Below are positions 3,934 through 62,052 of a DNA stretch of 64,000 nucleotides, piece after piece. Source of the stretch: Gammaproteobacteria bacterium (GTDB lineage Bacteria; Pseudomonadota; Gammaproteobacteria; Steroidobacterales; Rariloculaceae); contig JBJHBT010000012.1 of assembly GCA_050485645.1 (NCBI GenBank), forward strand, positions 2,597 through 66,596. Direction: 5' to 3'. Below the pieces are notes generated by a model. That model did not search any database and was not told the origin of the DNA. It saw only the letters and a program-made list of their open reading frames with translations. The position numbers and the translations under genes were made by a program. Every line of letters begins with the position of its first letter. Within the stretch, counting starts at the first letter, position 1.

Positions 3934-5106
3934 TCAGCGTGCGCTCAGCGCGATCGGCTGAATGTCCCGAGGCGGGTCTTTCAGCAGGGCGGCCCAGAAC
4001 GACACCGTCAGCTCGCTGACGATATTGCTTTCCGCGTTGGTCAGAATGATGAGGCCCACATCGCGGTTGCGGGACATGGAAATGTCGGCACGAAAGCCCG
4101 ACACCCATCCACCATGATAGATCAGCGGCTCTTCGCCGAACCGATATACACGCCAGCCCAGTCCGTAATACGCGTCGGTGAGATGGCCGCGCCAGTGATT
4201 GCGGTTCATGTCGCTGCGGACGCGGATGGCCGGACTGGTGGCCAGTTCGACGACATCGGCAGGCAGCACATCCTCGCGGTGACCAAGCAGTGCGATCAGC
4301 CACTCGGCCATGTCCAGCGCGCTGGCGTTCACCCCTGCCGCGGGACTGACGCGATAGTAGTTCGGCGTAACGGCACTCTGTCGCCACAGCTTGGCGCGCA
4401 CCCGCACATGCGGTTCGGCGCGGTTCTGTGTCGCGATGAACGGCTCATAGCCGACGGACGCGTTGCGCATGCCCAGCGGCTCGAAGAATCGCTGCGTCAG
4501 CAGCTGCGAATATCCGATGCTCGTCACCGACTCCAGCACCGGCTCGATCAGGCTGAATGTTCCGTTCTGATAGGTGTAGCACGTGCCGGGCTGACACAGC
4601 GGGGCGATGGTCCGGAAATGCGGGATGATCTCGTCCAGCGTCTTGCCGGCCTCGATCAGGTTGTCGTAGGCGTTGGACACGAAGCCGGTGGTCTGCGCAA
4701 GCACATCCCGCACCGTGATGAGCTGATGCGGCCCCTGGAACTCGAAATCCGGCCGGAACCGCGTGATCGGGTCGTCGAACGCGAAACCGCCTTCGCGCGC
4801 GACCAGTGCCGCGACCGTGCCGGCGAAGCCCTTCGATACCGAAGCCAGGCGAAATACCGTCTCCGGGTCCACCGCTCGGCCACTGCCCAGGTCTGTGCGC
4901 CCGAAGCTGCCGATCCTCACCACGCGGCCATCGGCGACAACCGCATAGGCGCCGCCGGGAATGGCTTCTTCCGTGAGCATCTGGTGAAACTGGCGCTCGA
5001 AGGCGAGAACGTGATCCAGCATGCCGTTGAACGGGTCCGCGAGCACGGGCGTCCCGGACAGTGCGAACACGGCGGCCAGGGCGGCAGTCGGCGCGAATGG
5101 TCTCAT
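3934..5106 (-). CDS. Secreted serine hydrolase, beta-lactamase family (second copy in this flank)
   Basis: 390-aa ORF. Signal peptide MRPFAPTAALAAVFALSGTPVLA and SxxK motif in FRLASVSKGFAG. Confidence 0.85.
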   Translation of the reverse strand: MRPFAPTAALAAVFALSGTPVLADPFNGMLDHVLAFERQFHQMLTEEAIPGGAYAVVADGRVVRIGSFGRTDLGSGRAVDPETVFRLASVSKGFAGTVAALVAREGGFAFDDPITRFRPDFEFQGPHQLITVRDVLAQTTGFVSNAYDNLIEAGKTLDEIIPHFRTIAPLCQPGTCYTYQNGTFSLIEPVLESVTSIGYSQLLTQRFFEPLGMRNASVGYEPFIATQNRAEPHVRVRAKLWRQSAVTPNYYRVSPAAGVNASALDMAEWLIALLGHREDVLPADVVELATSPAIRVRSDMNRNHWRGHLTDAYYGLGWRVYRFGEEPLIYHGGWVSGFRADISMSRNRDVGLIILTNAESNIVSELTVSFWAALLKDPPRDIQPIALSAR

Positions 5107-5246
5107 CGGCTGTGGAACTGATTGACTGAACCCGCTGGGATTCTAAACCAGCTGACGGTGGTTATGTCTACCGACCGCGTCAGGGTATTGCCGCGAGGTC
5201 GCCGGCCGGTGTCTGCAGGTGGGCCGCCATGCGTGGGCGGGCATCG

Positions 5247-54841: not shown

Positions 54842-56206
54842 CTATGGCATCGGCAGGAAACTCGACGCTATCGCGAAGTAGATCAGCACACCGGCGATGT
54901 CGGCTATGGATGTGATCAGCGGCGCGCTGGCGGTGGCGGGATCGAAGCCCAGCCGCGTGAGTATGAATGGCAGGGTCATGCCGATCGTACTGCCGGTGAT
55001 GACGATAAGTATCATTGCCGACGAAACGACCAGCGCGATCTCGGGTCCACCACGCACCACGCCGATCAGTGACACGGCCAGCGCCATCGACAGCCCCAGC
55101 AGCGCGGCCACGAACAGTTCGCGGCCGATCAGGCTGCCCCAGTCCTTCATCTGTACATCGCCGGTGGCCAATGCGCGCACCATCAGTGTCGCCGACTGTG
55201 AGCCGGCATTGCCGCCGGATGCGATCAGAATCGGCAGGAAGAACAGCAGCGCCAGGTAGGCGGCGATCGTCTCCTCGTACGCCGCGATGCCGGCGCCGGA
55301 AAAAATATTGCCGAACACCAGAACAACGAGCCAGACGATGCGCGCGCGATACAGCATGAACACACCGGCGTCGCGCACATTCGTTACCAGTTTGGAAACG
55401 GTACCGGCTTTCTGGAAGTCTTCCGTCGCTTCTTCCTGGAGGACGTCCAGCGCGTCGTCGTGCGTGACGATGCCGACAAGGCGGTTCTCGCTGTCGACAA
55501 CCGGAATGGCCAGTACGTCGTACTTGGCGATCTTGCCGGCCACGTCTTCCTGGTCGTCGTCGACGTGCACGGCAATGGGATTGCGTTCCATCAGTCGACC
55601 GACCGTTGCCTTGGACGGGGCGAGTATCAGGTCCTGAAGGCGAACCGACCCGATCAGCCGCCGTTCGTCATCGATCACATAGGCGCGGTAGATCGTTTCC
55701 TTGTCCGGTGCCTCGCGCCGCAGTTTTTCGATGGCTTCCGCGGCGGTCTGAGGCTGGGCCACGGTTGCGTAGTCCGAGGTCATGATCGCGCCGGCGGTAT
55801 CTTCCTCGTACGACGACAGGCGGCGTATGTCCTCGCGCTCCGCCTGGGCCAGCGCCGGCAGCAACGCCTCCCTCTGTTCGCCGGACAGTTCGTTCAGCAG
55901 GTCGGCGCGTTCGTCGGAATTCATTTCTGTGACGATGCGGGCAAGCTCCGCACGGGTCAGCACCGTGGCCGCGTCCACCTGATTGTCTGGTTCCAGGTAA
56001 CCGAATACACCGGCCTTGCGCCGGTCCGGCAGCAGCCGCAGGACCTCAGCGGTTTCCTCAGGCGTCATTTCGGCAATGCACGCGGCGATGTCCGCGGCAT
56101 GCACCTCGCTCAATGCCAGCCGTATGCCTTCGAGATTGTTCTGTTGCAGGCGTTCGCGCAGTGCTTCGGTGGAGATGTTGGCGGTCATGGCAGAACTTCC
56201 TTGCAA
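54842..56206 (-). CDS. mgtE: Magnesium transporter MgtE
   Basis: 454 aa. MgtE N-domain, CBS pair (IGSVRLQDLI..., LVGIVTHDDALDVL) and C-terminal TM domain with GGNAGSQSATLMVRALA. Confidence 0.93.
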   Translation of the reverse strand: MQGSSAMTANISTEALRERLQQNNLEGIRLALSEVHAADIAACIAEMTPEETAEVLRLLPDRRKAGVFGYLEPDNQVDAATVLTRAELARIVTEMNSDERADLLNELSGEQREALLPALAQAEREDIRRLSSYEEDTAGAIMTSDYATVAQPQTAAEAIEKLRREAPDKETIYRAYVIDDERRLIGSVRLQDLILAPSKATVGRLMERNPIAVHVDDDQEDVAGKIAKYDVLAIPVVDSENRLVGIVTHDDALDVLQEEATEDFQKAGTVSKLVTNVRDAGVFMLYRARIVWLVVLVFGNIFSGAGIAAYEETIAAYLALLFFLPILIASGGNAGSQSATLMVRALATGDVQMKDWGSLIGRELFVAALLGLSMALAVSLIGVVRGGPEIALVVSSAMILIVITGSTIGMTLPFILTRLGFDPATASAPLITSIADIAGVLIYFAIASSFLPMP

Positions 56207-56436: not shown

Positions 56437-56751
56437 ATGGCGTACAACCGCAACCATGCCCGTGCATTGTGTAATGCCAATGAACTGGCGCTCTTCGAGG
56501 CCAGTCTCGCTGACAGCATCGAGGCGCATTCGGCCGCCGCACTCAGGGACAAAATCAAGCGGGCGCGAACATTGCGCGACAAGTACCGTGATCTGTACAA
56601 GCGTCAGCGTCTGGCCACGCGTGATCGCACCGGAACGAAAAAAGGTGTGCGGTCCGACAGCAACGCGCGCACCGACAGCAAGGCCAGACTTTTCGACGAA
56701 GTCCTCAAGCGCTTCCAGACGCGGGCCGACGCGCTGGCGAAGCGGCAGTAG
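56437..56751 (+). CDS. Hypothetical small basic protein
   Basis: 104-aa Lys/Arg-rich ORF (MAYNRNHARALCNANELALFEASL...) upstream of and co-oriented with the Kdo-type operon. No motif recognised. Confidence 0.4.
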   Translation: MAYNRNHARALCNANELALFEASLADSIEAHSAAALRDKIKRARTLRDKYRDLYKRQRLATRDRTGTKKGVRSDSNARTDSKARLFDEVLKRFQTRADALAKRQ

Positions 56752-56818: not shown

Positions 56819-58156
56819 ATGAGGTTCGTCGTTGATCTGATCTGGCTGCTGTTCGGGCTGCTGGCTTCGCCTTGGCTGCTGTACAGGGCGGTCGTGACTG
56901 GCGGGTGGCGGCGTCTGCCGGCGAGGCTGGGATCGGAGGTTTCCAGCCCCGCGCCTGCCGGTATCTGGCTGCACGGTGCGTCCGTGGGTGAGGTGACGCT
57001 GCTCAGGCCGCTGGTGGCACGCTTGGAGCGTGAGCTGCCGCATCTGCCGCTGACCATTTCGGCGGTGACCTCCACCGGCGCCGCCGCCGCCCACAAGCTC
57101 TGGCCGCAACACCACGTCGTGCTGCTGCCGCTCGATCTGTCGTTTATCGTGCGCCGCGTGATGGGTCGCATGGCGCCGCGCATGATCGTGATCGTCGAGG
57201 CGGATTTCTGGCCCAACTTTCTGCTGGCCGCCGACGCACGCCGCATACCGGTTGTGGTGGTGAATGCGCGCGTATCGGAGCGATCGGCGCGCCGGCTGCT
57301 GCGCACGCGCGTCGTTCCCGGCGTTCTGCGTCGCACGGCCATGATCGCGGCGCAGAACGAGACGTTCCGGCAGCGGTTCGTGTCGCTTGGCATCCCGGTG
57401 CGGCAGACCCTGGTGACCGGCAACATGAAGTACGATCAGGTTGCCACTTCCGCCGAACCCGGGCGCGACGGACTGCGAATGTCGCTGGGCTACGCGCGCG
57501 ACGAACTGATCCTGATCGGTGGCAGTCTGCATGCCGGCGAGGACGAAGTCGTGCTGGAAGCCTTTCGGAATCTGCGTCGCGTGCAGCCGGTCAGACTGAT
57601 TCTGGTGCCGCGATATCCCGTGGAGGCCGCCGCGATCGCGGCGCGTATCGCGGCGACCGGTGACAGCGTCACGCTCAGAAGCCAGCCCGGCGGCGCGGCG
57701 CCGCCGGATGTCCTGGTGGTGGACACGCTGGGTGAGCTGGCCGGCCTGTATGCGCTGGCGGACATCGCGTTTGTCGGCGGCAGTCTGTATTTCCGCGGCG
57801 GCAACAAGGGCGGACACAACCTGATGGAACCGGCGGTTGCCGGCCTGCCGGTGCTGTTCGGGCCCCACCACTACAGTTTTCGCGATACCGTGGCGGATCT
57901 GCTCGCGGCCGGAGGCGGCATGCAGGTGCATGACAGCGTGGAACTGACGCAGGCGCTGGTCGCGCTGGGTACCGATCCGGAGCGGCGCAGGGCAGTCGGA
58001 GCGGCGGCCCGTCGGGTTGTGACTGACGGTCAGGGCGCCACGCAGCGCAACTTCGAGCTGCTTCGCGAACTGCTGGTGGAGCCGGGCGATGGCTTGCGAC
58101 CGCAGGGCTTTGACATCACAATGCTTCGCACGACACCCGGCACGGATACAGGATGA
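56819..58156 (+). CDS. 3-deoxy-D-manno-octulosonic acid (Kdo) transferase family protein, divergent paralog
   Basis: ATG 56819. GT30 N-domain pattern IWLHGASVGEV...ISAVTSTG...VEADFWPNFLL...VVVVNARVSERS and C-domain GGSL...GGHNLMEPAVAGLPVLFGPHHYSFRD. The track ORF start at 56456 is an upstream extension. Confidence 0.8.
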   Translation: MRFVVDLIWLLFGLLASPWLLYRAVVTGGWRRLPARLGSEVSSPAPAGIWLHGASVGEVTLLRPLVARLERELPHLPLTISAVTSTGAAAAHKLWPQHHVVLLPLDLSFIVRRVMGRMAPRMIVIVEADFWPNFLLAADARRIPVVVVNARVSERSARRLLRTRVVPGVLRRTAMIAAQNETFRQRFVSLGIPVRQTLVTGNMKYDQVATSAEPGRDGLRMSLGYARDELILIGGSLHAGEDEVVLEAFRNLRRVQPVRLILVPRYPVEAAAIAARIAATGDSVTLRSQPGGAAPPDVLVVDTLGELAGLYALADIAFVGGSLYFRGGNKGGHNLMEPAVAGLPVLFGPHHYSFRDTVADLLAAGGGMQVHDSVELTQALVALGTDPERRRAVGAAARRVVTDGQGATQRNFELLRELLVEPGDGLRPQGFDITMLRTTPGTDTG

Positions 58157-58989
58157 CCAAGAAACACGTACAGGTTGGCGATATCGACTGCGGTTCGGAT
58201 CAGCTTTTCCTGATTTCCGGGCCCTGCGTGATCGAAGCCGAGTCGATGATGATGAACACGGCGGAGCGGCTCAAGAAGATCGCCGAATCGCTGGGTGTTC
58301 CGCTGGTGTTCAAGTCGTCCTTTTCCAAGGACAACCGCAGCTCGCTGGACTACTACCAGGGGCCGGGCCTCGACGAAGGGCTGAAAATCCTGGAGAAGGT
58401 CAAACGCGAGTTCGACCTGCCGGTACTCACCGACATCCACTATCCGAACCAGGCCGCGCCCGCGGCTGACGTGGTCGACATACTGCAGATTCCCGCCTAT
58501 CTGTGCATGCAGACCGAACTTGTGGTCGCCGCAGCGAAGACCGGCAAGGTGGTGAATATCAAGCATGGCCAGTTCATCGCACCGGACAACATGGCCAAAC
58601 CGGTGAAGAAGATCGAGGCGGTGGGCAATGAGCAGATCATCGTCACCGAACGCGGCTATACCTTTGGTTACAACGATCTGATCGTGGATCCGCGTGCCTT
58701 TCTGCTGTTGAACCAGATCGGTTATCCGGTGGTGTTCGACATCACGCATACCATTCGCAAGTACGGCATCCCCAGCAAGGATCCGCGTGGCGGCACTCGT
58801 GAGTTTCTGGCGGTACTGGCGCGCGCCGGTGTCGCGGCCGGCATCGACGGCATCTTCATCGAAGCGCATCCCAACCCGCCGGAAGCACTTTGCGACGCCG
58901 CGAGTCAGTACTACCTCGATCAGCTGGCCGAATTCGTCAAGCCGCTGCTCGAAATACACAATCTGGTCCGATCTCAGCAGAAGATCTGA
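58153..58989 (+). CDS. kdsA: 3-deoxy-8-phosphooctulonate (Kdo8P) synthase KdsA, Cys-type (metal-dependent-like) variant
   Basis: ATGA overlap with the upstream stop. Collinear with E. coli KdsA as I recall it (FKSSFSKDNRSS, LQIPAYLCMQT, FDITHT, FIEAHPNP). Cys25 in GPCVIE sits where E. coli has Asn (GMNVLE). Confidence 0.92.
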   Translation: MTKKHVQVGDIDCGSDQLFLISGPCVIEAESMMMNTAERLKKIAESLGVPLVFKSSFSKDNRSSLDYYQGPGLDEGLKILEKVKREFDLPVLTDIHYPNQAAPAADVVDILQIPAYLCMQTELVVAAAKTGKVVNIKHGQFIAPDNMAKPVKKIEAVGNEQIIVTERGYTFGYNDLIVDPRAFLLLNQIGYPVVFDITHTIRKYGIPSKDPRGGTREFLAVLARAGVAAGIDGIFIEAHPNPPEALCDAASQYYLDQLAEFVKPLLEIHNLVRSQQKI

Positions 58990-59015
58990 ATCCGGCTCAA
59001 CCTGAAGGTTATTCC

Positions 59016-60053
59016 ATGGAACTGTATCTGGACTCCGTCGATTTCAAGGAGATCGAAACCGCGTTCGAATTCGGCTTTCTGAAAGGGCTGACAACCACGC
59101 CGACATTCATGCATCGTCACGGCATCACGGATGTCGACGGTGCCATCGTGAAGCTGTCCGGCATGGTGCCTGAGCTACAGGTTGAGGCGCTTGGCGATAC
59201 GCCCGACGAGATTCTTCGTGAAGCCGAACGTATTCTGGCGCTTCCCGGCCTCCAGCAGGCACCGGTATTCAAGGTGCCGATTTCCAACGCCGGTGTGAAA
59301 GCCTGTGATCGGCTGACGAGGAAGGGTTATCGGGTCAACGTGCACCTGATCTATACGTTGAACCAGGCCTACATGGCGATGGCGGCGGGCGCTGCGTTCG
59401 TGTGTCCGCTGGCGGGGCGCCTCCAGGACCAGGGCCATGACGCGATCAAGCTGTTTGAGCAATGCGTCGATGTGATCGTTACCCATGGCTATGATGCCAA
59501 GGTCATGTTCTCGTCCGTGCGTCATGCCGAGCATGTGCGTCAGGCGCTGTTGTGCGGCGTGCATGTGTGCACCGTGCCTTTCGGCGTCATCAATAATCTA
59601 TGCGAGAACTCGTTGACGACCGTGGGTACCGCCCAGTTCCGCGAGCACACGCAGCTGATGACGCTCAAGGTCCGCGACCTGATGGGCAGCGTCAATCCGG
59701 TATGTGAAGCGTCCGAGACGCTGAGCTCGGCGATGGTGAAAATGACGGAATCCAGGCTCGGTATCGTCAATCTCGTCGACGGCGAAGGCCGCATGGCGGG
59801 TGTGTTCACCGATGGCGATCTGCGCCGCAAACTGCAGGAAGGCGGACGCCGGATTCTCGACAAGACGCTTGCGGAGATCGGCTTCTCGCCGAGCCCGGTC
59901 AGCATACCGAAAGACAGCCTGCTCAACGAAGCGGTGAAACTGTTCAAGGAGTTCAAGGTCGACAGCATCGTGGTTCTGGACGGCGAACGTCCGGCCGGCG
60001 TGCTCGACATCCAGGACCTGGTGAAGCTGGGCCTGCTCGGCCCGCAGCGCTGA
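59016..60053 (+). CDS. Fusion protein: fructose-6-phosphate-aldolase/TalC-type TIM barrel plus KdsD/KpsF-type CBS pair
   Basis: The N-terminal 215 aa resemble E. coli FSA (MELYLDS.D, GLTTTP, Schiff-base Lys context VFKVPIS..G.KA). The C-terminal 125 aa is a CBS pair with GVFTDGDLRRKL, nearly identical to the KdsD motif GIFTDGDLRR. No SIS domain. Confidence 0.75.
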   Translation: MELYLDSVDFKEIETAFEFGFLKGLTTTPTFMHRHGITDVDGAIVKLSGMVPELQVEALGDTPDEILREAERILALPGLQQAPVFKVPISNAGVKACDRLTRKGYRVNVHLIYTLNQAYMAMAAGAAFVCPLAGRLQDQGHDAIKLFEQCVDVIVTHGYDAKVMFSSVRHAEHVRQALLCGVHVCTVPFGVINNLCENSLTTVGTAQFREHTQLMTLKVRDLMGSVNPVCEASETLSSAMVKMTESRLGIVNLVDGEGRMAGVFTDGDLRRKLQEGGRRILDKTLAEIGFSPSPVSIPKDSLLNEAVKLFKEFKVDSIVVLDGERPAGVLDIQDLVKLGLLGPQR

Positions 60054-60057
60054 TCTC

Positions 60058-60741
60058 ATGTTTGAGCCGGCAGAGCTGCAGGCTCGCTACACGGCATCCG
60101 GCGCTTCGTTCCTGACGCCCGCCACGACGCTGGCGGCGCGGGTCGCGTCGCTGCGCGGCATCGTGTTCGACTGGGACGGCGTATTCAATGCCGGCGTCAA
60201 GGGCGAACACATGCCCAGTCCGTTCAGCGAGCCCGATTCCATGGGAACCAACCTGTTGCGGTACGGGCTGTGGCTGCGCGAACAGCGGCTGCCCGTCGCG
60301 GCAATCGTGTCCGGCGCGGCCAACCCCGACGCGGTGGCGTTCGCCAGACGCGAGCATTTTCAGGCGGTGTATCCCGGCGTGCGTAACAAGGCGGACGCGG
60401 TGGCGGCCCTGTGCGCCGTCCATGGCGTGGACGCGTCACAGCTGGCGGTGGTGTTCGATGATGTCAATGATCTGCCGATGGCCGCCGAATGTGGCATGCG
60501 CTTTCTGGTGCGTCGCGCTAGCAGTCCACTGCTTGCGGAGTTCGCGGCGCGCGAGGGACTGTGCGACTACGTTACAGCCTGCGAGGGGGGGCGCCATGCA
60601 GTGCGTGAAGTCACGGAACTGCTGCTTGGTCTCACCGGCCGGTTCGAGCAGGTGATCCGCTCCCGGATAGCCTCCGATGATGCCTATGTGCGCTACTTCA
60701 ATGCGCGCCAGGCACTTGAAACCCGGCTTGAAAGCCACTGA
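60058..60741 (+). CDS. HAD-superfamily phosphatase, KdsC (Kdo8P phosphatase)-like with extended termini
   Basis: DxDGV motif (IVFDWDGVFNAG), RNKADAV...VVFDDVNDLPMAAECGM and GGRHAVREVTELLLG parallel the KdsC motifs. 227 aa versus about 180 for typical KdsC. Confidence 0.65.
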   Translation: MFEPAELQARYTASGASFLTPATTLAARVASLRGIVFDWDGVFNAGVKGEHMPSPFSEPDSMGTNLLRYGLWLREQRLPVAAIVSGAANPDAVAFARREHFQAVYPGVRNKADAVAALCAVHGVDASQLAVVFDDVNDLPMAAECGMRFLVRRASSPLLAEFAAREGLCDYVTACEGGRHAVREVTELLLGLTGRFEQVIRSRIASDDAYVRYFNARQALETRLESH

Positions 60742-60762
60742 TCCGCGTTACGGACGAGACAT

Positions 60763-62052
60763 GTGACTGTCTGGGGTGTCGTCGCTTATCTGCTGCTGCC
60801 ATACGCGATACTCAAGCTGTTGTGGCGCGGCTTTCGTTATCGTGCCTACTGGTATCGCTGGCCGGAGCGCTTCGGCTTCATCGACCCGCCTTCCGACGAA
60901 CACGTGATCTGGATTCATGCGGTTTCGGTGGGCGAGGTGCGTTCCTGCGTGGTGCTCGTTGACGCATTCGCGGAGCGCTTTCCCGATCACCGCATTCTCA
61001 TCACGACGATGACCCCGACCGGATCGGCGCAGGTCCGCGAACTGTTTGCCGATCGGGTCAGCCATGCCTATGTGCCATACGACGTGCCGTTTGCGGTGGA
61101 GCGTTTTCTGAATCGGGCCCGGCCCGCGTTCGCGGTGATAGCCGAGACGGAGTTCTGGCCCAATATATTCCGTGCCTGCAATCACCGCGACATTCCGCTG
61201 CTGCTGGTCAATGTGCGGATATCCCAGACCTCGCTGCGCGGCTACTCGCTGGTACCGCGCACGTTTCGCGCCATGCTGGGTCACGCCGACATGATCTGCG
61301 CTCAGACACGCACCGACGCTTATCGGCTGCGCACGCTCGGTGCACCGGAGGGTCGCATCCACATCACGGGTAATCTGAAGTTCGACGTGGAAACGCCGGC
61401 TCGCCTGCTGGAGGAATCAGCCGCCCTGCGCGCCTCATGGGGGCGCGATCGTCCGGTGTTCATCGCCGCGAGTACGCATCGCGGTGAGGAGAGAATTCTG
61501 CTCAGGGCCTTCGGCGAGTTGCGGCAGCACTACCCGTCCATGCTGCTCGTGGTGGTGCCAAGGCACCCGGAGCGTTTCGAACCGGTGGCCAGACAGAGCG
61601 AACGGGCCGGATACCAGATCGCCCTGCGCAGTGAAACGCGCGGCAGTCTGCCAGAAGGCACCGACGTGCTGGTGGGCGACACCATGGGAGAGCTTCAGCG
61701 TCTGTATGCGGCATCCGATGTGGCATTCATCGGCGGCAGTCTGGTGCGCAAGGGTGGACAGAATCTGCTCGAGGCCTGTGCCGTTGGCGTGCCGGCGCTG
61801 TTCGGCCCGCATATGTTTCATTTCGAGGAGATCAGCGTCATGGCGCTGGAACGTGGCGCCGGACGTCAGGTGCACGGGGTTGCGGATCTGGTCGAGGCGG
61901 TGTCGGACTACCTTCAGAATCCGCCGGCGCGTCAGGCGGCCGGTGCTGCCGGCCGCCGGCTGGTGGCCGACAACCGCGGCGCGCTGGACAAGACCATGAA
62001 GCTGATGACCGATACGCTCAAGGAACGCGGTCGCGTCAGTCGCGCCACTTGA
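60763..62052 (+). CDS. waaA: Kdo transferase WaaA (KdtA)
   Basis: GTG start. LLLPYAILKLLWRGFRYRAYWYRWPERFG, IWIHAVSVGEV, ITTMTPTG, ETEFWPN and GGSLVRKGGQNLLEACAVGVPALFGPHMFHFEE are canonical WaaA. Confidence 0.9.
   Translation: MTVWGVVAYLLLPYAILKLLWRGFRYRAYWYRWPERFGFIDPPSDEHVIWIHAVSVGEVRSCVVLVDAFAERFPDHRILITTMTPTGSAQVRELFADRVSHAYVPYDVPFAVERFLNRARPAFAVIAETEFWPNIFRACNHRDIPLLLVNVRISQTSLRGYSLVPRTFRAMLGHADMICAQTRTDAYRLRTLGAPEGRIHITGNLKFDVETPARLLEESAALRASWGRDRPVFIAASTHRGEERILLRAFGELRQHYPSMLLVVVPRHPERFEPVARQSERAGYQIALRSETRGSLPEGTDVLVGDTMGELQRLYAASDVAFIGGSLVRKGGQNLLEACAVGVPALFGPHMFHFEEISVMALERGAGRQVHGVADLVEAVSDYLQNPPARQAAGAAGRRLVADNRGALDKTMKLMTDTLKERGRVSRAT

Follow-up and report, generated by a model that had tools for sequence, protein, structure and literature searches.

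Positions 56819–62052 of a 64-kb stretch of gammaproteobacterial DNA (Rariloculaceae; the whole stretch of 64,000 nucleotides is referred to below as the window) carry five genes on the + strand, which follow one another almost without spacing in the order GT30a–kdsA–fusion–HAD–waaA. The central gene encodes a transaldolase-fold (TAL_FSA) domain fused to a pair of CBS domains, and it lies where kdsA–kdsD–kdsC operons for the synthesis of 3-deoxy-D-manno-octulosonic acid (Kdo) carry kdsD, the gene for an arabinose-5-phosphate isomerase made up of a SIS domain and a CBS pair. The analysis favours, with a probability of about 0.55, a role of the fusion in supplying D-arabinose 5-phosphate (A5P) independently of KdsD, in a variant of this operon in which the SIS domain has given way to a transaldolase-fold domain and the KdsD-type CBS pair has been kept. 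A variant of Kdo biosynthesis with a transaldolase-fold domain in place of the KdsD isomerase domain is well supported and apparently undescribed; no description of a natural transaldolase–CBS protein in Kdo synthesis was found in the literature, which also offered nothing of use on Candidatus Rariloculaceae.

The transaldolase–CBS fusion in the kdsD slot

The fusion gene (59016–60053, + strand, 345 aa) encodes the transaldolase-fold domain in residues 1–212 (59016–59651; PF00923, E = 1.3e-31) and the CBS pair, which is of the KdsD/KpsF type, in residues about 216–341 (59661–60053; two matches to PF00571). The AlphaFold2 model has a pLDDT (predicted local distance difference test) of 91.9 and matches the transaldolases of Thermotoga maritima (1vpx) and Bacillus subtilis (3r8r) with target-normalised TM (template-modelling) scores of 0.93 and 0.92, respectively. 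The Schiff-base lysine and the catalytic aspartate and glutamate of the TAL_FSA fold are present as Lys86 (codon 59271–59273), Asp6 and Glu57. The barrel scores 131.9 with TIGR00875, the fsa/talC equivalog model, the cut-off of which is 245.95. Apart from transaldolases, the best matches of the fusion are those of its CBS pair to the C-terminal parts of the KpsF, KdsD and GutQ models of NCBIfam (E = 4e-16 to 3e-10); the pair also matches the solved CBS domains of the arabinose-5-phosphate isomerases 4o9k, 3fna and 3k2v, and KdsD-type models and structures match it better than any other CBS protein does. It is 38% identical to the CBS part of one canonical KdsD. No SIS domain was matched in the fusion by Pfam or NCBIfam, the KdsD models aligning over the CBS part only. 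Assessed as a member of the KdsD/KpsF/GutQ group, the fusion has the KdsD-type CBS pair and the position between kdsA and kdsC and is devoid of the SIS domain.

Gene order was compared between 21 fusion loci and 62 canonical KdsD loci taken from a genome scan. In 17 of the 62 canonical loci kdsA is the gene immediately upstream of kdsD and in six more it lies within about 1.6 kb of it, often preceded by kdsB and with a KdsC-type HAD gene on the far side of kdsD; the order (kdsB–)kdsA–kdsD(–HAD/kdsC) is found in Omnitrophota, Planctomycetia, Nitrospirae, a deltaproteobacterial metagenome-assembled genome, Chitinophagaceae, Pelobacter and others. The order kdsA–fusion(–HAD) is present in 18 of the 21 fusion loci, which belong to Gammaproteobacteria, Desulfobacterota and Bacteroidota and to three deep branches at 35–40% identity. 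Since the fusion sits in the kdsD slot and the C-terminal domain of kdsD has been kept, the simplest history would be replacement of the SIS-coding part of kdsD within the operon. The first-pass annotation of this DNA had listed the aldolase–CBS fusion as a member of the operon; its KdsD position, and with it its significance, had gone unrecognized.

The surrounding clusters are complete for the synthesis of CMP-Kdo except for KdsD. At the Plebeiibacterium marinum locus the genes run kdsA, fusion, DegT-type aminotransferase, Fe-dependent alcohol dehydrogenase, kdsB and KdsC-like HAD, and at a Desulfobacteraceae locus kdsA–fusion–HAD has as neighbours a GT30 gene and the genes for heptosyltransferases I and II. 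A search for SIS/KdsD genes that covered the window, 20 fusion loci and a further 80 metagenome loci from the Joint Genome Institute (JGI) with an aldolase domain 69–85% identical to that of the window (about 100 loci) detected none. Nor did any of the 80 KdsD loci listed come from an assembly that bears the fusion, which is too slight an observation to count as evidence.

At positions 110, 130 and 132 every Kdo-linked fusion has His, Cys and Leu without variation (codons 59343–59345, 59403–59405 and 59409–59411 in the window), whereas the canonical transaldolases, including the one from Myxococcota, have Thr, Ser and Phe. The corresponding residues of Escherichia coli fructose-6-phosphate aldolase (FSA), the sequence of which served for orientation only, are Thr, Ala and Tyr. 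All of the Kdo-linked fusions keep Asp6, Glu57, Lys86, Arg135, Ser167 and Arg169, and Asn108 as well except for a serine in the deep-branch locus L083; most of them have Thr28 instead of Asn. The active site thus looks functional but re-specified. The family is strongly conserved, with 76–91% identity over the best 120 of at least 120 clusters; among the matches listed it occurs in Desulfobacterales at 57–66% identity and in many Bacteroidota at 49–57%, cultured carriers of the latter group including Plebeiibacterium, Saccharicrinis and Labilibacter, and deep branches lie at 29–40%. In the source databases the proteins go by no more specific names than 'transaldolase family', 'TalC/MipB' and 'CBS domain-containing protein'.

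The same His-Cys-Leu signature is carried by stand-alone proteins of 215–230 aa. Of five whose gene context was examined, one follows a KdsA-like gene so closely that its start codon overlaps the stop codon of that gene, and it lies near a CMP-sugar cytidylyltransferase gene (three contigs); another adjoins a cytidylyltransferase gene. Because a stand-alone member is linked to KdsA, the link is one between the aldolase subfamily and KdsA, for which the CBS pair is not required. A wider proposal, for which the odds are put slightly short of even, is that the His110-Cys130-Leu132 proteins of transaldolase fold, fused or stand-alone, form a new class of enzymes that make A5P by covalent aldol chemistry, by either of the routes set out below, as a KdsD-independent first step of Kdo and LPS synthesis; the class would be lineage-wide in Gammaproteobacteria, Desulfobacterota and Bacteroidota, and its cassette would have passed from phylum to phylum along with KdsA and KdsC variants of its own.

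Further members were encountered in other surroundings. A stand-alone His-Cys-Leu aldolase on a TARA contig (L087, 200–5068) is accompanied by genes for a GH108 lysozyme with PG_binding_3, a PD-(D/E)XK nuclease-like protein, an epimerase and a radical-SAM/SPASM protein; the contig looks phage-like, and viruses may thus carry the aldolase subfamily as an auxiliary gene too. Distant fusion and stand-alone members lie in large polysaccharide clusters (L082, 1–15340; L088, 1–14666), which also contain a GHMP kinase, a second nucleotidyltransferase, glycosyltransferase genes of the families GT2, GT61 and GT9 and several radical-SAM/B12 enzymes; O-antigen or capsule-like glycans with modified octulosonic acids are suggested by this setting.

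KdsA requires the acyclic aldose A5P, which corresponds to fructose 6-phosphate (F6P) minus C1; A5P would therefore fit an F6P site with its C1 on the Schiff-base lysine and its phosphate at the conserved Arg/Ser/Arg site. In the proposed pathway the fusion would supply A5P to KdsA, Lys86 forming a Schiff base either with C1 of an aldopentose phosphate or with glycolaldehyde. By route (a), A5P would arise by aldol addition of glycolaldehyde to glyceraldehyde 3-phosphate (G3P). By route (b), which is speculation, ribose 5-phosphate would be split into a Lys-bound C2 enamine and G3P and these would be re-added with the opposite configuration at C2 to yield A5P; the C2 fragment would never be released and no free glycolaldehyde would be needed, a logic analogous to that of L-ribulose-5-phosphate 4-epimerase. 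KdsA would then convert A5P and phosphoenolpyruvate to Kdo 8-phosphate (Kdo8P), the KdsC-like phosphatase would convert Kdo8P to Kdo, KdsB, encoded elsewhere, would activate Kdo to CMP-Kdo, and WaaA and GT30a would transfer Kdo to lipid A. The reaction of route (a) is known from FsaA and from the F178Y variant of TalB, which form A5P from glycolaldehyde and G3P; TalB F178Y also forms ribose 5-phosphate (PMC9947464).

The replacement by an invariant His-Cys-Leu of three first-shell residues that are conserved in transaldolases and FSA, together with a score far below the fsa/talC equivalog cut-off (132 versus 246), argues against the closest competitor, namely an ordinary enzyme of the pentose phosphate pathway, a transaldolase or F6P aldolase under CBS regulation, that only feeds pentose phosphates toward Kdo, with a normal KdsD encoded elsewhere in the genome. 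This is regarded as unlikely, although the fold and the catalytic Asp, Glu and Lys are transaldolase-like, the database name is that of a transaldolase family protein and the SIS/KdsD search covered loci; it would leave unexplained the coincidence of the kdsD slot and a KdsD-type CBS pair across three phyla. An ordinary talC gene also adjoins kdsD in two Myxococcota loci (L018, 4199–5846; L019, 6992–8651), which can be counted in favour of an ordinary enzyme and which constitutes a second, independent neighbourhood link of transaldolase-fold genes to the A5P step. These pairs were considered as a split form of the fusion and rejected as such, being an ordinary talC, with Thr-Ser-Phe, divergent from an ordinary kdsD.

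The partner KdsA and the alternative of a different sugar

The kdsA gene (58153–58989, + strand, 278 aa) encodes a Kdo8P synthase of the Cys (metal) type, which passes the KDO8P-synthase equivalog cut-offs with 355.2 against 242 (NF003543) and 341.5 against 314 (TIGR01362). The first-pass annotation had placed a cysteine, Cys25, at codon 58225–58227; it is found there, with His199, Glu237 and Asp248 completing the set of metal ligands. In metal-dependent KDO8P synthases Cys replaces Asn at the metal site and His, Glu and Asp are the further ligands (PMC3052366). The special standing that had been given to the Cys-type enzyme was not borne out: the cysteine is the common form, 20 of the 22 sampled KdsD-linked KdsAs having it too, and Cys25 was dropped as a rarity for that reason.

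The partner enzymes do differ in other motifs. The window KdsA has KDNRSS, YLCMQT (Met119, codon 58507–58509) and CDAAS; all 17 fusion-linked KdsAs have KDNRSS, LC(M/Q)QT and CDAAS, and all 22 KdsD-linked KdsAs have KANR, L(C/S/A)RQT and mostly CDGP. We take the arginine that is missing from the fusion-linked enzymes to be R106 of Aquifex and R120 of E. coli, which presumably reaches over from the adjoining subunit to bind the phosphate of A5P. A Cys-Asp-Gly-Pro motif is conserved around the metal-binding aspartate of metal-dependent enzymes (PMC3052366), and in its place CDAA(S) is found in all 17 fusion-linked KdsAs. The motif differences could reflect an altered substrate or a coupling to the aldolase. 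In a neighbour-joining tree of 265 columns, which included an E. coli KdsA sequence for orientation only, the core fusion-linked KdsAs are monophyletic in 98 of 100 bootstraps, with the distant one of L083 as their sister. The clade stands beside the enzymes of Bacteroidota and Ignavibacteria (of the Fibrobacterota–Chlorobiota–Bacteroidota, or FCB, type) and far from the E. coli sequence. The window KdsA is 51–84% identical to other fusion-linked KdsAs and 42–52% identical to KdsD-linked ones, and its clade is common to Bacteroidota and Desulfobacterota at 64–70% identity.

The consistent motif difference between the 17 and the 22 enzymes is an argument for an alternative that the first-pass annotation had raised, in which kdsA, the fusion and the HAD gene make a Kdo-like but chemically different ulosonic acid and, in the window, form a second module that accompanies a normal pathway to Kdo. 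The aldolase would generate an aldose phosphate other than A5P, to which the variant KdsA and the phosphatase would have become adapted in step. Two further observations would accord with it: the HAD is a separate subfamily too, and methyltransferase, radical-SAM and Wzy-like genes surround distant members in polysaccharide clusters. We nevertheless hold it to be distinctly improbable, somewhat more so than an ordinary transaldolase, since the KdsA lies above both KDO8P-synthase equivalog cut-offs and the contexts are those of the inner core, with a canonical WaaA here, kdsB in Bacteroidota and heptosyltransferases in Desulfobacteraceae. Moreover, two observations make it less convincing that the covarying Arg-to-Met and Ala-to-Asp changes prove a new substrate: the KdsA-like gene that is paired with the stand-alone His-Cys-Leu aldolase keeps KANR/LCRQT, so that the motif change is not obligatory, and the fusion-linked KdsAs belong to one clade, so that the change may have occurred once, in an ancestor.

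It is very improbable that the fusion merely assists KdsA in a non-catalytic or regulatory capacity, for example as a nucleotide sensor based on its CBS domains. CBS pairs are indeed ligand sensors, and in four diverged fusion relatives (P0131, P0133, P0142 and P0156) the CBS motif GVFTDGDLRR has been kept and the Schiff-base Lys, the Asp and the phosphate ligands have disappeared; but every Kdo-linked member retains all of the catalytic and phosphate-binding residues under very strong conservation, the Lys-less P0142 adjoins phosphodiesterase and M61 peptidase genes and not kdsA, and CBS-less stand-alone relatives keep the linkage to kdsA. The Lys-less branch possibly consists of pseudo-enzymes with another role.

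Several points weigh against a supply of A5P by the fusion. Free glycolaldehyde is not an obvious central metabolite, and the epimerization of route (b) has no enzymatic precedent in the transaldolase fold. The partner KdsA clade is without the Arg of LxRQT and has CDAA instead of CDGP, which could mean a different substrate. Three of the 21 fusion loci (L009, L014 and L017) have no adjacent kdsA. The full-text literature yielded no experimental study of any member of the fusion family, and a canonical isomerase elsewhere in the genome would much weaken the case, the search for SIS genes having covered the loci only.

The operon in its lineage and in the window

The five genes were found on the + strand at the coordinates given in the first-pass annotation, which had described them as co-oriented and closely spaced. 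GT30a (56819–58156) and kdsA share a 4-nt ATGA overlap; the gaps are 26 nt between kdsA and the fusion, 4 nt between the fusion and the HAD gene and 21 nt between the HAD gene and waaA. A scan for promoters and terminators revealed no site of the sigma-70 type and, within the operon, a single weak site resembling a terminator, fewer than expected by chance. A basic open reading frame (ORF) of 102 aa (56443–56751, + strand), which is without a Pfam match, ends 67 nt upstream of GT30a and may be co-transcribed with the operon, since no sigma-70-like promoter was found between them. The observation that the operon is without kdsB was upheld and extends to all of the window, the 64 kb of which contain neither a kdsB nor a SIS/kdsD gene.

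GT30a (445 aa; PF04413, E = 3.5e-50) is a diverged WaaA-family (GT30) paralogue: its best score with an NCBIfam WaaA equivalog is 302.3 bits against a cut-off of 438, so that it falls below every WaaA cut-off. The downstream waaA gene (60763–62052, + strand, 429 aa, GTG start; PF04413, E = 1.1e-66) encodes the canonical lipid IV(A) Kdo transferase and passes its cut-off with 476.5 against 438 bits (NF004388). The two proteins are 37% identical, in agreement with the earlier description of them as clearly diverged. Both keep the GT30 motifs of Aquifex WaaA (2xci), which in GT30a were identified by alignment as HxxSxGE, GNxK, PR and GGHNLxEP. Orthologues of GT30a with 47–64% identity occur throughout the lineage, including Candidatus Rariloculus sp., and orthologues of WaaA with 60–65% identity lie at the same position in L001–L004 (see below). 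Possible reasons for two GT30 enzymes are that both are monofunctional or that one of them adds a further Kdo.

The HAD gene (60058–60741, + strand) encodes a KdsC-like phosphatase of 227 aa with an N-terminal extension and weak but specific matches to KdsC models, which remain below the cut-offs (NF007019, E = 2.4e-13, 50.1 versus 208 bits; TIGR01670, 39.9 versus 107). Motifs I and IV are present as FDWDGV and DDVNDLP. The best-scoring PDB match is a Xanthomonas hypothetical protein (4nav), and most of the next ones are KdsC/YrbI proteins, the first being E. coli YrbI (2r8e). The HAD is a separate subfamily, placed after the gene in the kdsD slot. It is absent between the fusion and waaA in L002–L004, L099, L109, L115, L126 and L132, where the spacing is about 30–80 nt; in this part of the lineage the Kdo8P phosphatase must be encoded elsewhere or be dispensable.

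The complete order GT30a–kdsA–fusion–HAD–waaA, followed as in the window by an S1/P1 nuclease gene, is repeated on a 5.45-Mb contig (L001), and a version of it without the HAD gene is found in the GTDB species representatives L002–L004 (a Candidatus Rariloculaceae chromosome and two other gammaproteobacterial representatives). Since it recurs there and on many JGI metagenome contigs, the gene order is not due to chance. Among the 80 metagenome loci, counted in each case over those that could be assessed, kdsA lies directly upstream of the fusion-type aldolase in 52/52, the CBS pair is fused to the aldolase domain in 49/49, the HAD gene follows directly downstream in 41/47, a GT30 gene precedes kdsA in 24/34 and waaA lies downstream in 20/35. 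A divergently adjacent kdsB is seen in four of the 80, some relatives of the window having the order kdsB(−)/GT30a–kdsA–fusion–HAD–waaA. The operon is a normal inner-core Kdo operon for the lipopolysaccharide (LPS) of Candidatus Rariloculaceae-like Gammaproteobacteria.

The GC content at third codon positions (GC3) is 0.75–0.80 for all five genes of the operon and for their neighbours, and a dip in total GC content over kdsA and the fusion (0.58–0.60) arises at codon position 2. Recent horizontal acquisition was rejected on these grounds, the uniform GC3 implying that any transfer is not recent. Of the view that this was an unusual consolidated inner-core locus or a possibly acquired module, the following can be retained: the locus is consolidated, with two diverged GT30 enzymes, a Cys-type KdsA and no kdsB, and it may be called acquired in an ancient sense, its KdsA clade being shared with Bacteroidota and Desulfobacterota and standing beside the FCB-type enzymes. 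It is not unusual, since the arrangement is lineage-typical, and the clustering of kds genes is no oddity, kdsB–kdsA–kdsD–kdsC operons being frequent outside Proteobacteria. The possibility that both the arrangement and the phylogenetic placement would prove ordinary was confirmed for the former but not for the latter, because a KdsA that groups with Bacteroidota/FCB-type enzymes is not ordinary among Gammaproteobacteria.

Genes for a DegT-type aminotransferase and a Fe-dependent alcohol dehydrogenase accompany kdsA–fusion in the Bacteroidota loci L007, L008, L012, L013 (9159–11573), L015 and L016, and the same pair is found with the cassette in the metagenome relatives L134, L139, L154 and L166. 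A passage of PMC5125639 that cites Gattis 2013 describes the conversion of Kdo to 8-amino-Kdo (Kdo8N) by KdnA and KdnB of Shewanella. The aminotransferase/dehydrogenase pair resembles KdnA/KdnB as described there, and by analogy Kdo8N may be a product of these bacteria; another possibility is that the pair is linked to the supply of the aldolase substrate.

Upstream of the operon, between it and a GGDEF-EAL gene, lies mgtE (54842–56206, − strand), which encodes a Mg2+ transporter with a CBS pair of its own. It represents a local insertion or rearrangement, since in L001 GT30a comes directly after the GGDEF-EAL gene. Most of the window, from about 8500 to 47200, is taken up by a large flagellar and chemotaxis-related cluster with flg, fli and flh genes, a fleQ-like sigma-54 activator, flhF/fleN, fliA and motAB. 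Serine-hydrolase (beta-lactamase-like) genes are located at 306–1730 and 3934–5142.

Relation to known systems

The synthesis of Kdo belongs to the textbook account of how Gram-negative envelopes are assembled and is a nearly universal step, and KdsD and KdsA have been studied as antibiotic targets. A fusion that supplies A5P would amount to a widespread, non-homologous replacement of the first enzyme, which would alter the reconstruction of the pathway for many environmental and marine bacteria, and inhibitors of KdsD would miss the lineages that bear it. It would also be a clean case of a catalytic-domain swap in a conserved operon with retention of the regulatory domain. Annotation pipelines currently label the fusion 'transaldolase' or 'CBS domain protein'. 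It would, in addition, be a natural and presumably efficient 'Ara5P aldolase', an enzyme explicitly sought by the authors of synthetic pathways (PMC9947464).

Among known arrangements, kdsA–kdsD–kdsC operons share with the present one the gene order, the KdsA and KdsC-type neighbours, the C-terminal CBS pair of the middle gene and the LPS-core context; here, however, the middle gene has a transaldolase barrel instead of SIS, KdsA and the HAD belong to distinct subclades and two GT30 genes bracket the cassette. With the KdsD/KpsF/GutQ proteins (SIS plus CBS pair) the fusion has in common the slot, a homologous CBS pair of 33–43% identity that includes GxFTDGDLRR and, presumably, A5P as the product. 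It differs from them in having no SIS domain, so that any A5P would be formed by Schiff-base aldol chemistry and not by ene-diol isomerization of ribulose 5-phosphate.

The closest solved structures are the subfamily-5 transaldolases of B. subtilis (3r8r), T. maritima (1vpx) and Thermoplasma acidophilum (3s0c), with target-normalised TM scores of 0.87–0.93 and about 30% identity. They share with the fusion the Asp, Glu and Lys, Asn108, Arg135 and Arg169, whereas in the fusion Thr110 is replaced by His, Ser130 by Cys, Phe132 by Leu and mostly Asn28 by Thr, and a CBS pair is added at the C-terminus. FsaA and TalB F178Y, which served as 'Ara5P aldolase' in synthetic glycolaldehyde assimilation, have the same fold, Schiff-base Lys and Asp, and their formation of A5P from glycolaldehyde and G3P is the chemistry proposed here (PMC9947464). 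FsaA has neither a CBS pair nor a linkage to Kdo genes, it forms A5P as a side reaction that has been put to use in engineered pathways only, and Gln59, Thr109, Ala129 and Tyr131 of its sequence stand opposite Glu57, His110, Cys130 and Leu132 of the fusion family.

The window KdsA is about 50% identical to solved metal-dependent KDO8P synthases of the Aquifex aeolicus type and shares their Cys-His-Glu-Asp set; it departs from them in CDAA for CDGP, Met for the Arg of LxRQT and Asp for the Ala of KANRSS. The transferases, finally, may be compared with systems in which inner-core Kdo is added by more than one enzyme, namely WaaA plus KdoT in Acinetobacter, and WaaZ (PMC12856342). By analogy, a split Kdo transfer is a plausible reason for the two transferases here. 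KdoT is without assignment to a characterized glycosyltransferase family (PMC12856342), whereas the second enzyme of the present operon is a GT30 paralogue of WaaA itself.

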